From an uncultured Verrucomicrobiae bacterium (GTDB lineage Bacteria > Verrucomicrobiota > Verrucomicrobiia > Chthoniobacterales > UBA10450): a stretch of 64,000 nucleotides of DNA. The position numbers and the translations under genes are program-made. The stretch spans positions 352,001-416,000 of the forward strand of contig CAWIBO010000002.1 of NCBI GenBank assembly GCA_963834385.1, written 5' to 3'. Shown here in pieces: positions 24,758-31,681 of this stretch (position 1 is the stretch's first letter; the number at the start of each line of letters is the position of its first letter). Under the pieces are notes generated by a model. That model did not search any database, had not been told where the DNA came from, and saw nothing but the letters and a program-made list of their open reading frames with translations.

Positions 24758-24781
24758 TCGTTCACCAGAGAGGACTCCCTT

Positions 24782-25942
24782 ATGAGCACAACCGTAGCCG
24801 AACCAAAGAAACAAAGCGTGGCCGACCGCATGAAGGCGGAGCACCAGCCGGACCAGGATTTCCTCCCGTTGCAGGGCACTGATTACGTGGAGTTCTACGT
24901 CGGCAATGCCAAACAGGCGGCCCATTACTACAAGACCGCCTTTGGTTTCCAGAGCCTGGCTTATGCCGGACCCGAAACCGGCGTGAAGGACCGGGCCAGC
25001 TATGTCATCCGGCAAAACAAACTGACCTTCATGTTGACCACGCCGCTGCGCCCGGATGGCCCGATCGCGGACCACATTCACCGGCATGGCGACGGCGTCA
25101 AAGTGCTGGCCCTGCGCGTGGACGACGCCACCTCGGCCTGGAAGGAAACGACCAAACGGGGCGGAAAAAGCTATCTCGAGCCCAAGACGCTGGAAGACGA
25201 GAACGGCCGCGTGGTCATGAGCGGCATCCACACCTACGGCGACACGGTCCATCTCTTCATCGAGCGCGGGGATTACAAGGGCGTCTTCATGCCCGGCTTC
25301 CGGAAGTGGGAATCGAAATACAATCCGCCGGAAACCGGCCTCCTCTATGTCGACCATTGCGTCGGCAACGTCGGCTGGAACCAGATGAACCCGTGGGTGA
25401 AGTTTTACGAGGAGGTCATGGGCTTCCGCAACATCCTCACCTTCGACGACAAGGATATCTCGACCGAGTACTCCGCGCTCATGAGCAAGGTCATGAGCAA
25501 TGGAAACGGCTTTGTGAAGTTTCCGATCAACGAGCCGGCCGAGGGGAAAAAGAAGTCGCAGGTGGAGGAGTATCTCGACTTCTACGGGGGCGAAGGGGTG
25601 CAGCATTGCGCCCTGGCGACCAACAACATCATCGAGACGGTGAGCGACCTGCAAAACCGCGGGGTGGAGTTCCTGAATATCCCGGACAGCTATTACGAGA
25701 CGGTGCTCGACCGCGTGGGCAAGATCGACGAGGACCTGAAGCCTCTGCGCCAGCTCGGTATCCTGGTGGACCGCGATGAGGAGGGCTATTTGCTGCAGAT
25801 CTTCACCAAACCGGTGGAAGACCGGCCCACCCTGTTCTTCGAGATCATTCAGCGCAAAGGGGCAAAGAGTTTTGGGAAGGGTAATTTCAAGGCGCTTTTC
25901 GAGGCGCTGGAGAAGGAACAGGACGCCCGTGGGAACCTTTAA
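24782..25942 (+). CDS. hppD: 4-hydroxyphenylpyruvate dioxygenase
   Basis: HGDGVK, DHCVGN, FPINEP, GEGVQH, LLQIFTKP, FGKGNFKALFEA. Confidence 0.98.
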   Translation: MSTTVAEPKKQSVADRMKAEHQPDQDFLPLQGTDYVEFYVGNAKQAAHYYKTAFGFQSLAYAGPETGVKDRASYVIRQNKLTFMLTTPLRPDGPIADHIHRHGDGVKVLALRVDDATSAWKETTKRGGKSYLEPKTLEDENGRVVMSGIHTYGDTVHLFIERGDYKGVFMPGFRKWESKYNPPETGLLYVDHCVGNVGWNQMNPWVKFYEEVMGFRNILTFDDKDISTEYSALMSKVMSNGNGFVKFPINEPAEGKKKSQVEEYLDFYGGEGVQHCALATNNIIETVSDLQNRGVEFLNIPDSYYETVLDRVGKIDEDLKPLRQLGILVDRDEEGYLLQIFTKPVEDRPTLFFEIIQRKGAKSFGKGNFKALFEALEKEQDARGNL

Positions 25943-25952
25943 GGAGTAGCAA

Positions 25953-27138
25953 ATGCCGCATTATCAGAAACTCGGGGAGATCCCGCGCAAACATCACGTC
26001 TGGTTTCATCGCAACGGGGCCGGGCCCGGCTACAAGAACGAGGGGATCTATTACGAGCACGTCATCACGACGGAAGGCTTCAACGAGGCCTACTCCATCA
26101 TGTATCACCTGCGGCCGCCCACCCGCGTTCGCAGCGTGGAACTCCTCAAGTGCGAGGAGCTGAAGAAGGTCGCGAACGCTCCGCTCCGCCATCATCATCT
26201 CAAGGCGGCGAATGTCCCGCGGCAGGGCGATCTTTATACCGGGCGCATCCCAATGCTCTTCAACCAGGACATGATCGCCTACCGGCACAAGCCGGCCAAG
26301 ACCTACGGCGAGTACGAGTATTACCGGAACGGCGGGGCCGACGAGATCATCTTCGTCTTCAAGGGCGCCGGCACGCTCGAGTCCCCCTTCGGCAAACTGC
26401 GTTATCGGGCGGAGGATTACATCGTCATCCCGCGCGGCATCACCTATCGGCTCGTTCCCGGACAAGGTGGAGGAGGAGGACTATCTCATCCTCGAGTCGA
26501 ACGGCCCGGTCCGGATTCCGCGGCGTTATCTGAATCATGACGGCCAGATCCGCATGGGCTCGCCCTATTCCGAGCGCGATTTCCACGGCCCGACCGAGAT
26601 TCTCACGATCGACAAGGACGAGGATGTGGCCGTGCTGGTGAAGGACGGTCCGCGCTGGACCCGCGTGGTGCATGCCCATCATCCCTTCGACATCGTGGGC
26701 TGGGACGGGTTTGTTTATCCCTTCACCTTCAACGCGCAGGATTTTGAGCCGATTACCGGGACGGTGCATCAGCCGCCGCCGATCCATCAGACCTTTGAGA
26801 TCCGCGGCTATGTCGTCTGCACGTTCGCCCCGCGCATGCTCGATTATCACCCGGAGGCGGTGAAAATCCCGTGGGTGCACGACAACGTCGAGGCCGACGA
26901 GGTCCTCTTTTACGTGCGCGGCAATTTCGGCTCGCGCAAGGGCATCGAGGCCGGCTCCATGACGCTGCATCCGCGCGGCATTCCGCACGGGCCGCATCCG
27001 GGCACCATCATGGCGAGCAAGGATGCCACCCGCACGGAGGAACTCGCCGTCATGTTCGACACCGAGCACACGCTCGAGCTGACCGAGCAGGCCTTGAAGC
27101 TGGACGACGAGAAGTATCCGCTGAGCTGGCTGGATTAA
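25953..27138 (+). CDS. hmgA: Homogentisate 1,2-dioxygenase; frameshift near 26461
   Basis: GEIPRKHH, PFDIVGWDG, HQPPPIHQTF, TLHPRGIPHGP, ELAVMFDT. Confidence 0.93.
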
Positions 27139-27141
27139 CGC

Positions 27142-27771
27142 TTGAAACGCGACGGCCACTCAGAGTTCGAGATCGAGGAACGGCTCACGCGCGAGCCCAA
27201 CCGGCTCAAGCCCGGCAAGCTGGAGGAGCTGACCTCCTCCTTTGGCGAGATCCTCGAGGCCATCGGCGAAGACCCGGCGCGCCAGGGACTGCTCAAGACA
27301 CCGGAACGCGCGGCCCGCTCCTTCGAGTTCCTGACCCAGGGTTACCGGCAAAGCGTCGAGGAGATCGTCAACCAGGCGATCTTCGATTCCGACGCGAGCG
27401 AGATCGTCCTGGTGAAGGACATCGAGCTTTATTCGATGTGCGAACACCATCTCCTGCCCTTCGTCGGCAAGGCGCATGTCGCCTACATCCCGAACGGCAA
27501 GGTGATCGGTCTCTCCAAGGTGGCCCGGATCGTGGATGTCTTTGCGCGTCGCCTGCAGATCCAGGAACAGCTGACCACCCAGATCGCCGACGCCATCATG
27601 ACCACCCTCCACCCCGACGGCGTCGCCGTGGTCATCGAGGCGAAACATCTTTGCATGATGATGCGCGGGGTGGAAAAACAGAATTCCACCATGACCACCT
27701 CCTGCCTCCTCGGATCGTTCAAGGAGGACGCCCGGACGCGGTCGGAGTTTCTCTCGCTGCTCAAGGGCTAG
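27142..27771 (+). CDS. folE: GTP cyclohydrolase I
   Basis: [36 protein letters not shown]. Confidence 0.97.
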
Positions 27772-27779
27772 GAGCGCGC

Positions 27780-28976
27780 ATGCTCCTGACCGTCAGCAAG
27801 CGCCTCGAGTTTTGCGCTTCCCGCCGGCTGGCTCTCCCCGGGCGGACGGCGGCGCAGAACCGGGTCGATTTCGGGGCGGAGAGCGCGGCCCGCTACGGCA
27901 CCGGCCGGAATTATGTCGCCTGGTTCGTCCTCACCGGCACGGTGGACGAAAAGACGGGGATGCTGGTGAACATCAGCGAGATCAAACGCCGCGCCGCCGC
28001 CATCGTGGACGAGCGTTTCGACCACAAATTCCTGAACGCCGATCACCCGGCGTTTCGCGAGGCCGCGCCCACGGCGGAAAATATCGCGCGCCAGCTCCTG
28101 CAGGAGGCGCTGCCGGCTTTTGCCGGGATCAAGGCGGAGCTGACGGCGGTGCACCTGCGCGAAAACCGTTACCGGTCCGCCACCGTTTACGCCTCGGGCG
28201 CGACCGAGGCCAACCATTGGTTCGAGTTCTCGGCCGCGCGCCAGACGATGTCGCCCCATCTTTCCCAGGAGGAGAACGAACAGCTTTTCGGCGCGGCGGC
28301 CTCGCCCGCCGGGCACGGTCATCATTACCGGGCCCGGATCACCTTTCGCGACACCTTCCCGCCGGTCTCAGCGGTGGAGAAGACCCTGCTGGAACAGCGC
28401 GATCTTCTCGATCACAAGAACCTGAACCAGGAAGTGCCGGCGTTACGTGGCCGGCCAATCACAACTGAGTCGCTCGCGCGCTGGCTGCGCGAAACGCTGT
28501 CCGGGGACCTGCCCGTGTGCGGCGTTCGTTTGCATGAGCGTGACGATTTTTTCGCGGAAGCCTGGCCGGAGGGCGAGACGCTGCTGGGGCTCCGGCGTTC
28601 CTTCAGCGCGGCGCATCGGCTGCATTCCTCCGCGTTGACGGAGGAAGAGAACCGAACGCTTTACGACAAGTGCAACAACGAGCTGGGGCATGGGCACACC
28701 TATGTGGCCGAGGCGACAATCCGCGGTCCCTATGATGAACGCACGGGGACGGTCTCATCCTTCGACCGGTTGCAGCAGGGTCTGGCCGAGGCGGTGGCGC
28801 CATGGGAAGACCGGCACCTCGACCTCGAGACCGATGAATTCCGGGACCATCCCTCCACGGGCGAGAACATCGTGCGCGCCCTCTGGGAGAAGGTGAACGG
28901 TCGTTTGGACGACCAGCTGGTCCGCTTGCGGCTCTGGGAAACCGCCAATAACCGGTTTACCCTGCGGCGTTCATGA
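27780..28976 (+). CDS. Three-domain 6-pyruvoyl-tetrahydropterin synthase (PTPS/QueD fold x3)
   Basis: Three tandem units each with F.A..R/Q, D(H/R)..L, T.E.I/L and L.E motifs; third unit has FSAAHRL ... KCNNELGHGHTY. Confidence 0.88.
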   Translation: MLLTVSKRLEFCASRRLALPGRTAAQNRVDFGAESAARYGTGRNYVAWFVLTGTVDEKTGMLVNISEIKRRAAAIVDERFDHKFLNADHPAFREAAPTAENIARQLLQEALPAFAGIKAELTAVHLRENRYRSATVYASGATEANHWFEFSAARQTMSPHLSQEENEQLFGAAASPAGHGHHYRARITFRDTFPPVSAVEKTLLEQRDLLDHKNLNQEVPALRGRPITTESLARWLRETLSGDLPVCGVRLHERDDFFAEAWPEGETLLGLRRSFSAAHRLHSSALTEEENRTLYDKCNNELGHGHTYVAEATIRGPYDERTGTVSSFDRLQQGLAEAVAPWEDRHLDLETDEFRDHPSTGENIVRALWEKVNGRLDDQLVRLRLWETANNRFTLRRS

Positions 28977-29665
28977 AACGTTATCTTGTCACCGGCGCCA
29001 GCCGCGGCATCGGACGGGCCATCGCCCTGAGATTGGCGGCGCCCCAGACGACGATCATTCTCCATGGGCGCGATGAGAAGGCGCTGGCCGAGGTCCGCGC
29101 GGGTGTGGAAGAGCGCGGCGCCACCGCCCGCGTTGCCCCGGCTGACCTCGCCACCCCGGAAGGGGTGGAGGGTTTGGTCGCCGCCCTGGGCGGCGAAAAA
29201 CTTGACGTCCTGATCAACAACGCCGGCCTCGCCGTGGTGAAACCGCTCGCGGAGATCTCGCTCGCGGAATGGCAGCGCAGCCTGGCCGTGAACGTGACCG
29301 CGCCGTTCCTTCTCACCCAGAAGCTGGCCGACCGGATTCCGCGCGGCGGAAGCGTGGTCAACATTCTTTCCATCGCCGCCCGGACCGGGTTTCCGGGCTG
29401 GAGCGGTTATTGCGCAAGCAAGTTTGCCCTCGAGGGTTTCTCGCAGGCGGTCCGGGAGGAGTTCCGGCCGCGGGGGGTGCGGGTGATCAACATCTACCCC
29501 GCCGCGACCGACACCGAAATCTGGGAGGGGGTGGAGGGGGAATGGCCGCGCGAAAAGATGATGCGGGCCGAGGAGATCGCCGGGGCTGTGTCTTTTGCCC
29601 TGGCGCAGCCCGAGACGACCACGGTCGAGAATATCACTCTTTCGGCGACGGCGGGCGCCCTTTAG
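28973..29665 (+). CDS. SDR oxidoreductase, candidate sepiapterin reductase
   Basis: TGASRGIG, NNAG, GWSGYCASK; overlaps the PTPS stop (ATGA). Confidence 0.8.
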   Translation: MKRYLVTGASRGIGRAIALRLAAPQTTIILHGRDEKALAEVRAGVEERGATARVAPADLATPEGVEGLVAALGGEKLDVLINNAGLAVVKPLAEISLAEWQRSLAVNVTAPFLLTQKLADRIPRGGSVVNILSIAARTGFPGWSGYCASKFALEGFSQAVREEFRPRGVRVINIYPAATDTEIWEGVEGEWPREKMMRAEEIAGAVSFALAQPETTTVENITLSATAGAL

Positions 29666-29896: not shown

Positions 29897-31681
29897 CTAG
29901 GAGGAAGCGGTCTGCAGACCGGTTTTGTGATAGGTCACCAGGCGGAAACCCCACTCGATCACCGTCGCCTTCGCCTTGTCCTCCGCTTTTCTTTGGTTGA
30001 GGAAAGTGACGATCTTCTGCTTTAGCTCGTTTTGCTCGCCCGCCTCGTCGAGGATCTCGAAAATCTCCATCGAGAGAAGCCAGTCATCCGGATGCTCGGC
30101 CTGCTGGGTTTCCCAGATCTCGCCGAGGCGCTCGTAGCCGACCTTGCGGGCGCGAATGTCGCGCACCTGCTGGTAAAGGCTCTCGAGCTTCTTCCGCCGG
30201 GCATCGGACGGCACCTTGATCGTGCGCTCTTTCGGGACGAGCGCGACCTGGTTGTAGGTGTCCTTGTCGGCCGCGCCGTTGAAGACGGAGGTGATGCGTT
30301 CGCCCACCGCCATGTCGAAGGTCCCCCAGTCCGGGTCGAACAGGACGCGGTCGCCCAGCCGCACCGAGCAGTTCGAAAAAGTCAGCAGGAGCAAACGCCC
30401 GTCTTCGCGCACGATTCGTTCCACCTTGCCCGCGACCACGACGCCGCTGACGAAGTTGATCGTCGCTTTCATCCCGGCGGCGATGCCGATGCTCTGCAAC
30501 TGGTCGTCCGTCAGGTTTTCCGGCGGCACGCTGATGTTCCGCCAGCCGCCCACGGGCGCGCCGAAGCCTTTCGCATGGTAATCGCTTCCGTGCCCTTCGA
30601 GCTGTTTGTTCTCCCACGCCAGCGCGGTCGGTCCGGTCGTCCGGAGATAAATGGGTTCGCCCTTCTCCCCGGGGAGGACCTGGGTGAAGGTGCCGCTCAC
30701 CTGCAGCCCGGAGGAATACTGGCAGGTCGCGGTGTTCCGGCTTTCGATCGCCTTGTTGACTCCCTCCAGTCCGCCGACCTGGAAGGCCATGGTGGCGGCG
30801 AATTCCTCGAGGACGGTGCTCAGGTGCTTGAAATCGCGGCAGACGAAGAGCTGCGGCTGTTTCGTCGTGATATCGAACGGGGTCTGAGCCGCCTCGATCG
30901 AATACCAGAGTTTTTTGACCTCGGGTTCCAGGCAGGAAACAGATTCGCCGATCGAGGAAAGGAGGCCCGCGCCATAGATTTTCGGTTTCTCCAGCGTCCC
31001 GATCAGGCCGTATTCGACCGTCCACCAGTGCAGACGCGAGAGGAGCGCCATCTCGGAAGGTTCCCCGAGGTTTTTCTGGCGCTCTTCCACCTCGCGGGTG
31101 GCTTTTTCCAGCTCTTTGGGGTCGGAATTCGGCAGTTCTTTCAGGATGGAAAGATGCCGGATGGCCTCGTAGAGCTCGAAATCCTTGCGCGACTGCATCG
31201 CTCTCGCGCCCACTTCGCCGAAACGCTGGAGGTAATCGGAATATTCGCGGTCGACAATGATCGGCGCGTGCCCGGCCGCCTCGTGCACGATGTCGGGCGC
31301 GGGCGTGTATTCAATGTGATGGATCTGCCGCATGTCGCAGGCAATGACGAGAACCTTGTAAGCCTGGAACTCCATGAAGGCGGCCGGCGGGATGAACCCA
31401 TCCACCGCCACCGCCCCCCAGCCGATGCGGCCGAGGATGTCGTTCATCTCCTCGATGCGCGGGATGCGGTCGAAGGAGATGCCGGTTTCGAGCAGACCCT
31501 TGAAATAGACCTTGTGCGCGTATTCCTTCAGGAAAAAGGCGTTCTGGCGCATGATAAAACGCCAGACGGCATGGTCGACCGGGGTGTAATCGTCGTAACG
31601 CTGATCGACCGCGAATTGGAGCAGATGTTTTGGCAGCGACTGCACCGCCGCATTGGTTAGGCTGAAAGGTTGAAGGCTCAT
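29897..31681 (-). CDS. phhA: Pterin-dependent aromatic amino acid (phenylalanine) hydroxylase, long form
   Basis: YTPAPDIVHEAAGHAP, WWTVEYGL, IYGAGLLSSIGE, plus a C-terminal extension. Confidence 0.92.
   Translation of the reverse strand: MSLQPFSLTNAAVQSLPKHLLQFAVDQRYDDYTPVDHAVWRFIMRQNAFFLKEYAHKVYFKGLLETGISFDRIPRIEEMNDILGRIGWGAVAVDGFIPPAAFMEFQAYKVLVIACDMRQIHHIEYTPAPDIVHEAAGHAPIIVDREYSDYLQRFGEVGARAMQSRKDFELYEAIRHLSILKELPNSDPKELEKATREVEERQKNLGEPSEMALLSRLHWWTVEYGLIGTLEKPKIYGAGLLSSIGESVSCLEPEVKKLWYSIEAAQTPFDITTKQPQLFVCRDFKHLSTVLEEFAATMAFQVGGLEGVNKAIESRNTATCQYSSGLQVSGTFTQVLPGEKGEPIYLRTTGPTALAWENKQLEGHGSDYHAKGFGAPVGGWRNISVPPENLTDDQLQSIGIAAGMKATINFVSGVVVAGKVERIVREDGRLLLLTFSNCSVRLGDRVLFDPDWGTFDMAVGERITSVFNGAADKDTYNQVALVPKERTIKVPSDARRKKLESLYQQVRDIRARKVGYERLGEIWETQQAEHPDDWLLSMEIFEILDEAGEQNELKQKIVTFLNQRKAEDKAKATVIEWGFRLVTYHKTGLQTASS

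Follow-up and report, generated by a model that had tools for sequence, protein, structure and literature searches.

A triple-domain 6-pyruvoyl-tetrahydropterin synthase homologue in Verrucomicrobiota with its catalytic residues divided among three fused units

An uncultured Verrucomicrobiae bacterium of the order Chthoniobacterales (assembly GCA_963834385.1) encodes three fused units of 6-pyruvoyl-tetrahydropterin synthase (PTPS) in a single gene. The gene lies at 27780..28976 on the plus strand of the window, by which we mean the whole 64,000-nucleotide stretch analysed (positions 352,001 to 416,000 of contig CAWIBO010000002.1). The whole chain carries all of the PTPS catalytic residues, split among its units. 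Signature and genomic context, including neighbouring genes for GTP cyclohydrolase I (FolE), a short-chain dehydrogenase/reductase (SDR), and a phenylalanine hydroxylase, together suggest that the product is probably the 6-pyruvoyl-tetrahydropterin synthase of the tetrahydrobiopterin (BH4) pathway. With slightly better than even confidence, we favor a model in which the chain forms a BH4-pathway pseudo-trimer that stacks head to head with a second chain, unit 1 of each chain feeding the catalytic center in unit 3 of the other, to give two active sites per dimer; in this model we infer the dimerization, the supply in trans, the role of unit 1 as donor, and the enzymatic product.

The open reading frame runs from an ATG at 27780 to a stop codon at 28974-28976 (398 codons, 398 aa), with an AGGAG 5 nt 5' of the ATG that overlaps the FolE stop codon. 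Three stretches of the protein match the PTPS profile PF01242 (overall E 6.4e-57; 191 bits, cut-off 22.4), and in a six-frame search of the 2.9-Mb assembly (5 contigs, 89.6% complete) the stretches score 82, 70.7, and 45.9 bits singly, each above the curated cut-off, and make up the only PF01242 locus. They define unit 1 at 27792..28190 (E 2.1e-19), unit 2 at 28221..28565 (E 1.1e-11), and unit 3 at 28593..28967 (E 6.6e-23), all on the plus strand. A first-pass annotation, made from the sequence without database searches, had proposed three PTPS units in one chain and expected three matches in a Pfam scan; the matches were obtained, and its coordinates for the units proved right to within a few bases. 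Each unit alone also matches rat PTPS (PDB 1b66; E 2.2e-12, 2.5e-14, and 1.2e-22 for units 1, 2, and 3), and all three score better against animal PTPS than against QueD, the 6-carboxytetrahydropterin synthase. Unit 2 is about 7 residues shorter than the others after strand 2. Profile scores above the cut-off, together with the T-fold topology described below, place the protein in COG0720/PF01242.

The catalytic triad of rat PTPS consists of Cys A42, Asp B88, and His B89. We assigned equivalent residues from unit-by-unit alignments to 1b66, in which we take the rat residue number to be the chain index plus 4. Zinc ligand His23 corresponds to R15 in unit 1, R154 in unit 2, and H279 in unit 3; Cys42 to E34, A173, and C298; the ligand pair His48/His50 to T41/R43, H179/H181, and H304/H306; and Asp88-His89 to D81-H82, D211-H212, and E343-D344, the last followed by R345-H346. 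Equivalents of Glu107 and Glu133 are present in units 1, 2, and 3. Unit 1 is thus a T-fold without zinc ligands or Cys that retains D81-H82 (codons at 28020..28025 on the plus strand; the residues are our proposed donor in trans to the unit-3 site). Unit 2 lacks the first His and the Cys and retains H179-G-H181 and D211-H212, and unit 3 has the full zinc/Cys center with its Asp-His replaced by E343-D344-R345-H346 (28806..28817, plus strand), which aligns to Asp88-His89-Lys-Asn of 1b66. The first-pass annotation had read the same pattern from the translation: FDHK kept in unit 1 without the first zinc histidine, Cys, or HGH; HGH and LDHK kept in unit 2 without the first His or Cys; and all three zinc histidines and the Cys kept in unit 3, with EDRH in place of Asp-His. 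Every element of that description was borne out by the alignments.

The available text of a review of COG0720 associates C-x5-HGH with PTPS-II, C-x3-HGH with QueD, and E-x2-HGH with PTPS-III (PMC5041015). The first of these, together with the N-terminal third zinc histidine, occurs in unit 3 only, as H279 and C298-NNELG-H304-G-H306 in the translated sequence (C298 to H306 at 28671..28697, plus strand); units 1 and 2 lack it. C-x3-HGH is found in none of the three units, and E-x2-HGH is likewise absent, unit 3 having L-G before HGH with the Cys five residues away and unit 2 reading S-P-A-G-HGH. In two respects the protein departs from PTPS-II: Asp-His is expected in every subunit, whereas the Cys-bearing unit 3 has E343-D344, and each subunit is itself a fusion of three units, 398 aa long, instead of one of the ~140-aa subunits of a homohexamer.

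This division of residues is fixed among close relatives of the protein. A word-indexed search scored 8,000 candidates, of which 2,654 reached E <= 1e-3; the best 120 of these, query included, we treat as close homologues (about 395-427 aa). The other 119 are 60-67% identical to the query, and those with named sources come from Chthoniobacterales or Verrucomicrobiota. The R/E/T/R of unit 1 is found in 118-120 of the 120, with R15, E34, and R43 in all of them, as is D81-H82. In unit 2, R154, H179, H181, and D211 are again present in 120/120, H212 in 119/120, and position 173 is A or S in 119/120. The H/C/H/H of unit 3 is present in 120/120. The EDRH of our gene is a rare spelling of a motif whose family norm is Q/R-D-K/R-H and whose conserved form is x-D-x-H: the 119 residues aligned at position 343 (120 sequences) include 96 Q, 15 R, and 2 E, position 344 holds D in 113 sequences and N in the other 7, and H346 is present in 120/120. 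Conservation of the complementary pattern in homologues, which the first-pass annotation had named as a check on its proposal, therefore holds in 120/120 close homologues. In a separate alignment of 74 sequences (A1), the invariant columns are G42, N44, D81, H279, H304, G305, and H306.

Mean identity to the query is 61-65% in each unit, and 37-45% of columns are >=95% conserved. As judged from these comparisons, units 1 and 2 are under selection and not decaying. We considered a decaying pseudogene and ruled it out, since the three units are conserved to much the same degree and the residue pattern is fixed.

An AlphaFold2 monomer model, built with an alignment of 74 sequences, is a single compact body with a mean pLDDT of 97.0 and a pTM of 0.93, so that the positions of the three units relative to one another can be taken as confidently predicted; this monomer prediction was another of the checks that the first-pass annotation had suggested. 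Its secondary-structure elements follow the order E-(H)-E-H-H-E-E three times over, the topology of the T-fold, in which an antiparallel sheet of four strands has two helices between strands 2 and 3. The best Foldseek matches are single-domain PTPS chains (2g64, 3i2b, 1gtq), each spanning one third of the query (target TM 0.86-0.93, query TM 0.32-0.33). VIA-align, run against 48,161 representative chains, matches PTPS chains at Z 14-17.5, among them C. elegans PTPS 2g64 over residues 263-398 (Z 17.5) and 2dj6 over residues 1-138 (Z 15.7). Urate oxidases, with two T-folds per chain, match over two adjacent units at Z 9.6-10, and 12-stranded barrels (KdgM, NanC, and a designed barrel) match over residues 1-389 or 1-390 at Z 5.4-6.4. 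The modeled chain fits a closed 12-stranded pseudo-trimeric barrel. Neither structural search returned a solved chain made up of all three units (best Foldseek query TM 0.33; at most two units in VIA-align), and a PDB sequence search returned single-domain entries only, of 121-141 aa. The single-chain pseudo-trimer that the first-pass annotation envisaged is thus in agreement with the one-body model and with the barrel and urate oxidase matches.

The three-domain architecture extends well beyond the close homologues. We searched 1.84 billion cluster representatives exhaustively, without a profile; the 2,335 matches at E <= 1e-3 include many three-domain (~360-420 aa) and two-domain (~270-290 aa) proteins. 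A profile of 12 distant triples found 2,541 proteins at E <= 1e-10, with names that include Ardenticatena (a cultured Chloroflexi genus), Anaerolineales, Zixibacteria, and GN15. We cut 207 three-domain proteins (120 close, 87 distant) into units, co-aligned the units, and tabulated the key positions. A complete H/C/H/H set is present in unit 3 of 207/207 and in unit 1 of 0/207; in unit 2 it is present in 36/87 distant and 0/120 close proteins. Unit 1 has a Cys in 0/207, and in 39/87 distant triples it has the three His without the Cys. As for Asp-His, among the 120 close proteins it is present in unit 1 of 120, unit 2 of 119, and unit 3 of none, and among the 87 distant ones in unit 1 of 79, unit 2 of 84, and unit 3 of 12. 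On a tree of 97 triples the Cys and three His of unit 3 undergo zero changes, and the Asp88 and His89 positions of the same unit, which hold 27 different residue pairs, undergo 14 and 7.

On a tree of individual domains, all those of unit 1 group in a single clade, and those of units 2 and 3 each come close to doing so, with 3 label changes (minimum 2) compared to a mean of 137 for shuffled labels, and an IQ-TREE subsample gives the same picture. Because the units form clades or near-clades on this tree, the triplication is, on phylogenetic grounds, old and essentially a single event. Some distant triples have a complete H/C/H/H in both units 2 and 3, for example P0141 (Ardenticatena maritima, 418 aa), P0136, P0148, and P0164; complete sites in both units, as in 36/87 distant triples, would mean four sites per dimer. 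Every one of the 49 two-domain proteins that we tabulated has a complete site in its C-terminal domain; in the N-terminal domain the Cys is often missing and Asp-His retained.

How might a chain with its residues sorted in this way build an active site? The accessible portion of a study of QueD and its paralogue QueD2 describes T-fold enzymes as two rings stacked head to head, with beta1-beta4' contacts joining ring neighbors; the triad histidine of E. coli QueD (His71'') belongs to a protomer of the opposite ring, and in A. baumannii QueD2 the corresponding His68'' ligates zinc across the rings together with the two His of HGH (PMC9894224, in the part available). The first-pass annotation had proposed that unit 3 supplies zinc and Cys and that unit 1 or 2 of the same chain supplies Asp-His. 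Its complementarity stands, but supply within the chain runs against the cross-ring position of the triad histidine in QueD (PMC9894224, same portion): three fused units share one ring, and therefore the Asp-His should come from a second chain. In the model that we favor, the three units would close one 12-stranded barrel, the task of three separate subunits in the classical enzyme, and unit 3 alone would bind the catalytic zinc (H279, H304, and H306) and carry the general base, Cys298. Two chains would stack head to head, like the two trimers of the classical hexamer, and Cys298 would be activated by Asp-His of the other chain, most likely D81-H82 of unit 1. The Asp-His position of unit 3 would then face the Cys-less site of unit 1 and so would be free to change. 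The outcome would be two composite active sites in a dimer of six T-fold units, instead of six.

The choice of unit 1 as the donor depends on which units face each other. In a hexamer of D3 symmetry, top-bottom pairs of subunits are related by a two-fold axis, and donor and acceptor are therefore reciprocal. A dimer with two-fold symmetry would allow three sets of pairings: 1-1 with 2-3, 2-2 with 1-3, and 3-3 with 1-2. The last is disfavored because unit 3 would need its own Asp-His, which it has lost. The first is disfavored because the unit-2 site would need the Asp-His of unit 3; of the 36 distant proteins with a complete unit-2 site, 28 are without the unit-3 Asp-His, and the two features are not associated on the tree. 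Four observations favor 2-2 with 1-3: the variable Asp-His, that of unit 3, would face the site that never has a Cys, that of unit 1; D81 of unit 1 is invariant together with the histidines of unit 3; all 13 of 13 representatives with a degenerate middle unit have lost the Asp-His of that unit and retained that of unit 1; and the unit-1 His has been lost in 8 proteins, 7 of which have a complete unit-2 site as a fallback.

An alternative that keeps the pseudo-trimer and its reaction would have unit 2 supply the Asp-His to unit 3, either from the other chain (2-3, 1-1) or as the neighbor in the same ring. The Asp-His of unit 2 is the best conserved of the three (His in 95/97 and Asp in 94/97; 119-120/120 in close homologues), even though the unit has no Cys, and unit 2 is the covalent neighbor of unit 3, beta1-beta4' contacts being those that join adjacent T-folds (PMC9894224, as far as available). 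For a donor in the same ring, the last strand of unit 2 would pair with the first strand of unit 3. We nevertheless regard supply by unit 2 as rather unlikely. If it came from the other chain, the unit-2 site would in turn depend on the Asp-His of unit 3, which is missing from the 28 of 36 proteins just mentioned; the 13 representatives with a degenerate middle unit have an intact unit-3 site despite the loss of the unit-2 Asp-His; and supply within the ring conflicts with the cross-ring triad histidine of solved QueD, as the same portion of PMC9894224 describes it, and leaves the invariant D81 of unit 1 unexplained.

We consider it quite unlikely that the pseudo-trimer acts alone, unstacked, with Cys298 working without a classical Asp-His or with a substitute residue. 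Fusion makes trimer assembly unnecessary, the monomer model is already compact and confident, and the Asp-His position of unit 3 has been remodeled to a conserved D-x-H, all of which would suit a lone chain. However, solved PTPS and QueD enzymes are described, in the source text available, as pairs of stacked rings with active sites at the interface between them, and strict retention of Asp-His in units that lack a catalytic center is hard to explain without a partner site across such an interface.

Several points weigh against our model of a head-to-head dimer with unit 1 as donor. The rule that unit 1 pairs with unit 3, and unit 2 with unit 2, comes from a geometric argument. The Asp-His of unit 2 is better kept than that of unit 1 (His in 95/97 compared to 89/97), and its retention in 119/120 close homologues without the Cys or first His of that unit is left unexplained by the model, on the sequences compared. 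The replaced motif of unit 3 is not simply decaying, given the conservation of D344 (113/120) and H346 (120/120). A single origin of the triplication means that the 207 proteins are not independent evidence that unit 1 never has a Cys. Mean mutual information between the unit-3 site (its Cys loop) and the Asp-His motif, computed from 207 sequences (effective number 75.5), is 0.324 for unit 1, 0.275 for unit 2, and 0.291 for unit 3, a small difference that points only weakly in the predicted direction and that we set aside. Finally, the SDR encoded next to the triple gene is generic by sequence, and its role in the pathway therefore rests on context.

The well-kept residues of unit 2 raise the possibility, tentative and well short of probable, that units 1 and 2 are more than scaffold, with remodeled pockets that bind pterin or metal in a regulatory or structural capacity; this is compatible with the head-to-head model. 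One candidate is a His3 metal site like that of QueD2, in which H179 and H181 would be joined, on the true two-fold axis, by H212 from the other chain. In QueD2, according to the text available, zinc is held by the HGH histidine pair and the triad histidine of the opposite protomer (PMC9894224). Such a site, or a ligand-binding pseudo-site, would explain why unit 2 has kept both Asp-His and HGH. The replacement residues R15/E34/R43 and R154/H179/H181/D211 are fixed in 120/120, Glu equivalents persist in all units, and units 1 and 2 are conserved as much as unit 3. On the other hand, such conservation could reflect barrel packing and the dimer interface alone, and QueD2, whose rings are tetrameric, is only distantly related (7v0f, Z 11.5).

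Genomic context ties the triple gene to pterin-dependent aromatic amino acid metabolism. It is the fourth gene of a tightly packed and partly overlapping plus-strand set, a conserved operon, that begins with 4-hydroxyphenylpyruvate dioxygenase (HPPD; 24779..25942, longest ORF start 24578, with glyoxalase and HPPD N-terminal domains) and homogentisate 1,2-dioxygenase (25953..27138, two overlapping ORFs with HgmA_C and HgmA_N matches). FolE follows at 27142..27771 (PF01227 E 2.7e-78; TIGR00063 261 bits against a cut-off of 181.6), ending 8 nt 5' of the PTPS gene. After the triple gene comes the SDR, a candidate sepiapterin reductase (28973..29665, PF00106 E 9.7e-48), whose start overlaps the PTPS stop codon (ATGA). 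Along its whole length it matches Chlorobium sepiapterin reductase 2bd0 (E 9e-24), with many generic SDRs also among its matches. Beyond it, on the minus strand and convergent with the set, lies a long aromatic amino acid/phenylalanine hydroxylase of 594 aa (29897..31681; NF010657 796 bits against a cut-off of 346) that matches a 592-aa phenylalanine 4-hydroxylase (PDB 7vgm_A, E 7.4e-171). The association expected of PTPS-II, an SDR of sepiapterin reductase type with a pterin-dependent hydroxylase nearby, is therefore found here, and genes for pterin-4a-carbinolamine dehydratase and a separate FolB are also present in the genome. In the proposed pathway, FolE would make dihydroneopterin triphosphate, the triple enzyme would convert it to 6-pyruvoyl-tetrahydropterin, and the overlapping SDR would complete the cofactor; the cofactor would serve the neighboring phenylalanine hydroxylase, whose reaction heads the homogentisate route, and with it the phenylalanine and tyrosine degradation genes.

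A single inserted base near 26453-26456, where the window has CTCGTTCCCGGAC and relatives have CTCG-TCCCGGAC, interrupts the homogentisate 1,2-dioxygenase gene (hmgA). The extra base is absent from four relatives, in which the gene reads through in one frame; it could be either an assembly error or a real frameshift.

We compared the flanks of the triple gene at 26 related Verrucomicrobiota loci, several on contigs that end early. FolE lies upstream in 24/26 and the SDR downstream in 21/26, HPPD is present in 19/26 (78-85% identical), and the hydroxylase in 13/26. The PTPS gene is the least conserved of the set, at 41-63% identity compared to 57-90% for its neighbors. A survey of 40 relatives, 24 of the same family and 16 of other families of the order (the unpublished genomes G002, G007, and G014 counted), found the triple form in 21/24 same-family genomes but in 0/16 of the others, and the long hydroxylase in 23/24 but again in 0/16. 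One genome from another family of the order (G029, L041:1669-3629) has a canonical single-domain PTPS, with the first His, C-x5-HGH, and D-H all in one domain, between an SDR and a short hydroxylase (309-aa ORF), making this locus a helpful point of comparison for the module in its ancestral, unfused form. Two relatives, G007 (94% complete, unpublished) and G013 (84%), have the long hydroxylase and QueC with no PF01242 match. In G011 (97% complete; C20:22757-23828) a TAA lies inside unit 2 of the triple gene, the unit being matched in two pieces; the middle unit is either naturally interrupted in this relative or has been misassembled.

Public annotation would instead make the triple protein a QueD, and source names of homologues do say '6-carboxytetrahydropterin synthase'. 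The whole protein scores 90.3 bits against the QueD profile TIGR03367, whose cut-off is 89.25, and this is the only COG0720 gene found in the assembly, which does contain queC, queF, a queE-like gene, and tgt. Yet the profile is passed only by summing two stretches that score 41.4 and 37.7 bits singly, and such summing probably explains the frequent QueD label. The sole Cys-bearing unit has C-x5-HGH instead of C-x3-HGH, and the gene sits in the FolE-SDR-hydroxylase cluster, away from the que genes. A true QueD from a 100% complete relative (G020, L039:1966-2358), which has C-x3-HGH and adjoins queE, matches nothing in this genome (best E 0.12), and ten relatives have both the triple gene and a separate QueD. 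We therefore consider it very unlikely that the protein is a QueD and not a BH4 enzyme. The G020 QueD has Gln at the expected first zinc histidine.

In the genome studied here (G000), queC is at C5:739508-740140 with queF just upstream, the queE-like gene is at C2:844878-845219, and two tgt genes are at C5:722042-723106 and C3:85769-86818; in a search of the 2.9-Mb assembly the triple PTPS was the sole COG0720 gene, and no QueD was found. Across 25 same-family genomes (this one and the three unpublished ones included), 12 have the triple gene only, 10 have the triple gene and a C-x3-HGH QueD, and 3 have no PF01242 match, while QueC is present in 25/25. Several of the triple-only genomes are 93-99% complete, and one of the 12 has the stop inside unit 2. 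A QueE-like gene is present in the 6 triple-only genomes checked (this one and five of high quality); queF and tgt were checked in this genome only. Since the triple protein is the only COG0720 protein in 12 of the 25 while queC is kept, it may also supply 6-carboxytetrahydropterin for queuosine, from the unit-3 site or from the Cys-less unit-2 pocket on the dimer axis, although we think this unlikely. If true, one asymmetric pseudo-hexamer would house two different pterin chemistries.

Other searches added little. No RNA family reached its Rfam gathering score within the window, and a scan for promoters and terminators was close to the expectation from shuffled sequence. A search of sequencing runs matched no RNA run and three soil DNA runs from one study, with 6-7% of words. 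In the ESM Atlas the matches were to the protein's own Verrucomicrobiota PF01242 clusters only.

Neither the fold nor the chemistry of this protein is unusual; what is undescribed, in the literature that we searched, is a covalent pseudo-trimer whose catalytic residues have been sorted among its units. No description of a three-domain PTPS turned up there, in agreement with the first-pass annotation, which knew of no characterized example, although Phillips 2012 may mention fused forms. The COG0720 review divides the group into PTPS-I to PTPS-VI, and the word 'tandem' is absent from its main text as available (PMC5041015). Homo-oligomers with shared active sites rarely show the outcome of subunit fusion. 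Here three T-fold units have been locked in place by fusion, after which metal and base were sorted to one of them and the activating Asp-His to the others. If complementation in trans is true, a natural six-site enzyme has been cut to two composite sites with four pseudo-sites under selection, which would inform our understanding of T-fold assembly, pseudo-enzyme domains, and zinc economy. There are thousands of such proteins, typical of abundant soil Chthoniobacterales, named generically or as QueD, and these labels hide a probable bacterial BH4 pathway coupled to the breakdown of phenylalanine and tyrosine.

Among the closest known systems are single-domain PTPS-II enzymes (rat 1B66/1GTQ, human 3I2B, C. 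elegans 2G64), together with bacterial single-domain forms such as that of G029. They share the fold and the family PF01242, and with unit 3 they share the three zinc histidines, C-x5-HGH, and both Glu (35-38% identity, TM 0.86-0.93); their pathway partners are also the same, namely GTP cyclohydrolase I, an SDR, and a pterin-dependent hydroxylase. Classical PTPS, however, is a homohexamer of ~140-aa subunits, each with the full residue set, and has six sites, whereas the triple protein is fused and its residues are divided, zinc and Cys in unit 3 only and Asp-His in units 1 and 2 only. Uncharacterized two-domain bacterial PTPS proteins resemble the triple protein in having their complete site in the C-terminal domain, but with two units instead of three their ring geometry must differ. 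E. coli QueD (PTPS-I; 4NTK, 3QN0) shares the T-fold and zinc center (Foldseek TM 0.88-0.90), as well as a Cys with a cross-ring Asp-His triad (PMC9894224, in the portion available), but it is a single-domain enzyme with C-x3-HGH that makes 6-carboxytetrahydropterin (CPH4) for queuosine and is encoded in que gene clusters, and its matches to units 1 and 3 are only weak (E 1e-4 to 1e-3). A. baumannii QueD2 (7V0F), also of COG0720, offers a precedent for H179/H181/H212 of unit 2 in that its HGH pair and an opposite-ring triad histidine are described, in the same portion, as holding the metal; it differs in its tetrameric rings, C-x4-HGH, C-terminal extension, and role as a low-zinc paralogue, and its Z of 11.5 is on unit 1. 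Urate oxidase, GTP cyclohydrolase IB, and bimodular QueF likewise fuse neighboring T-folds of one ring, but with two units per chain and with other chemistry and ring sizes.

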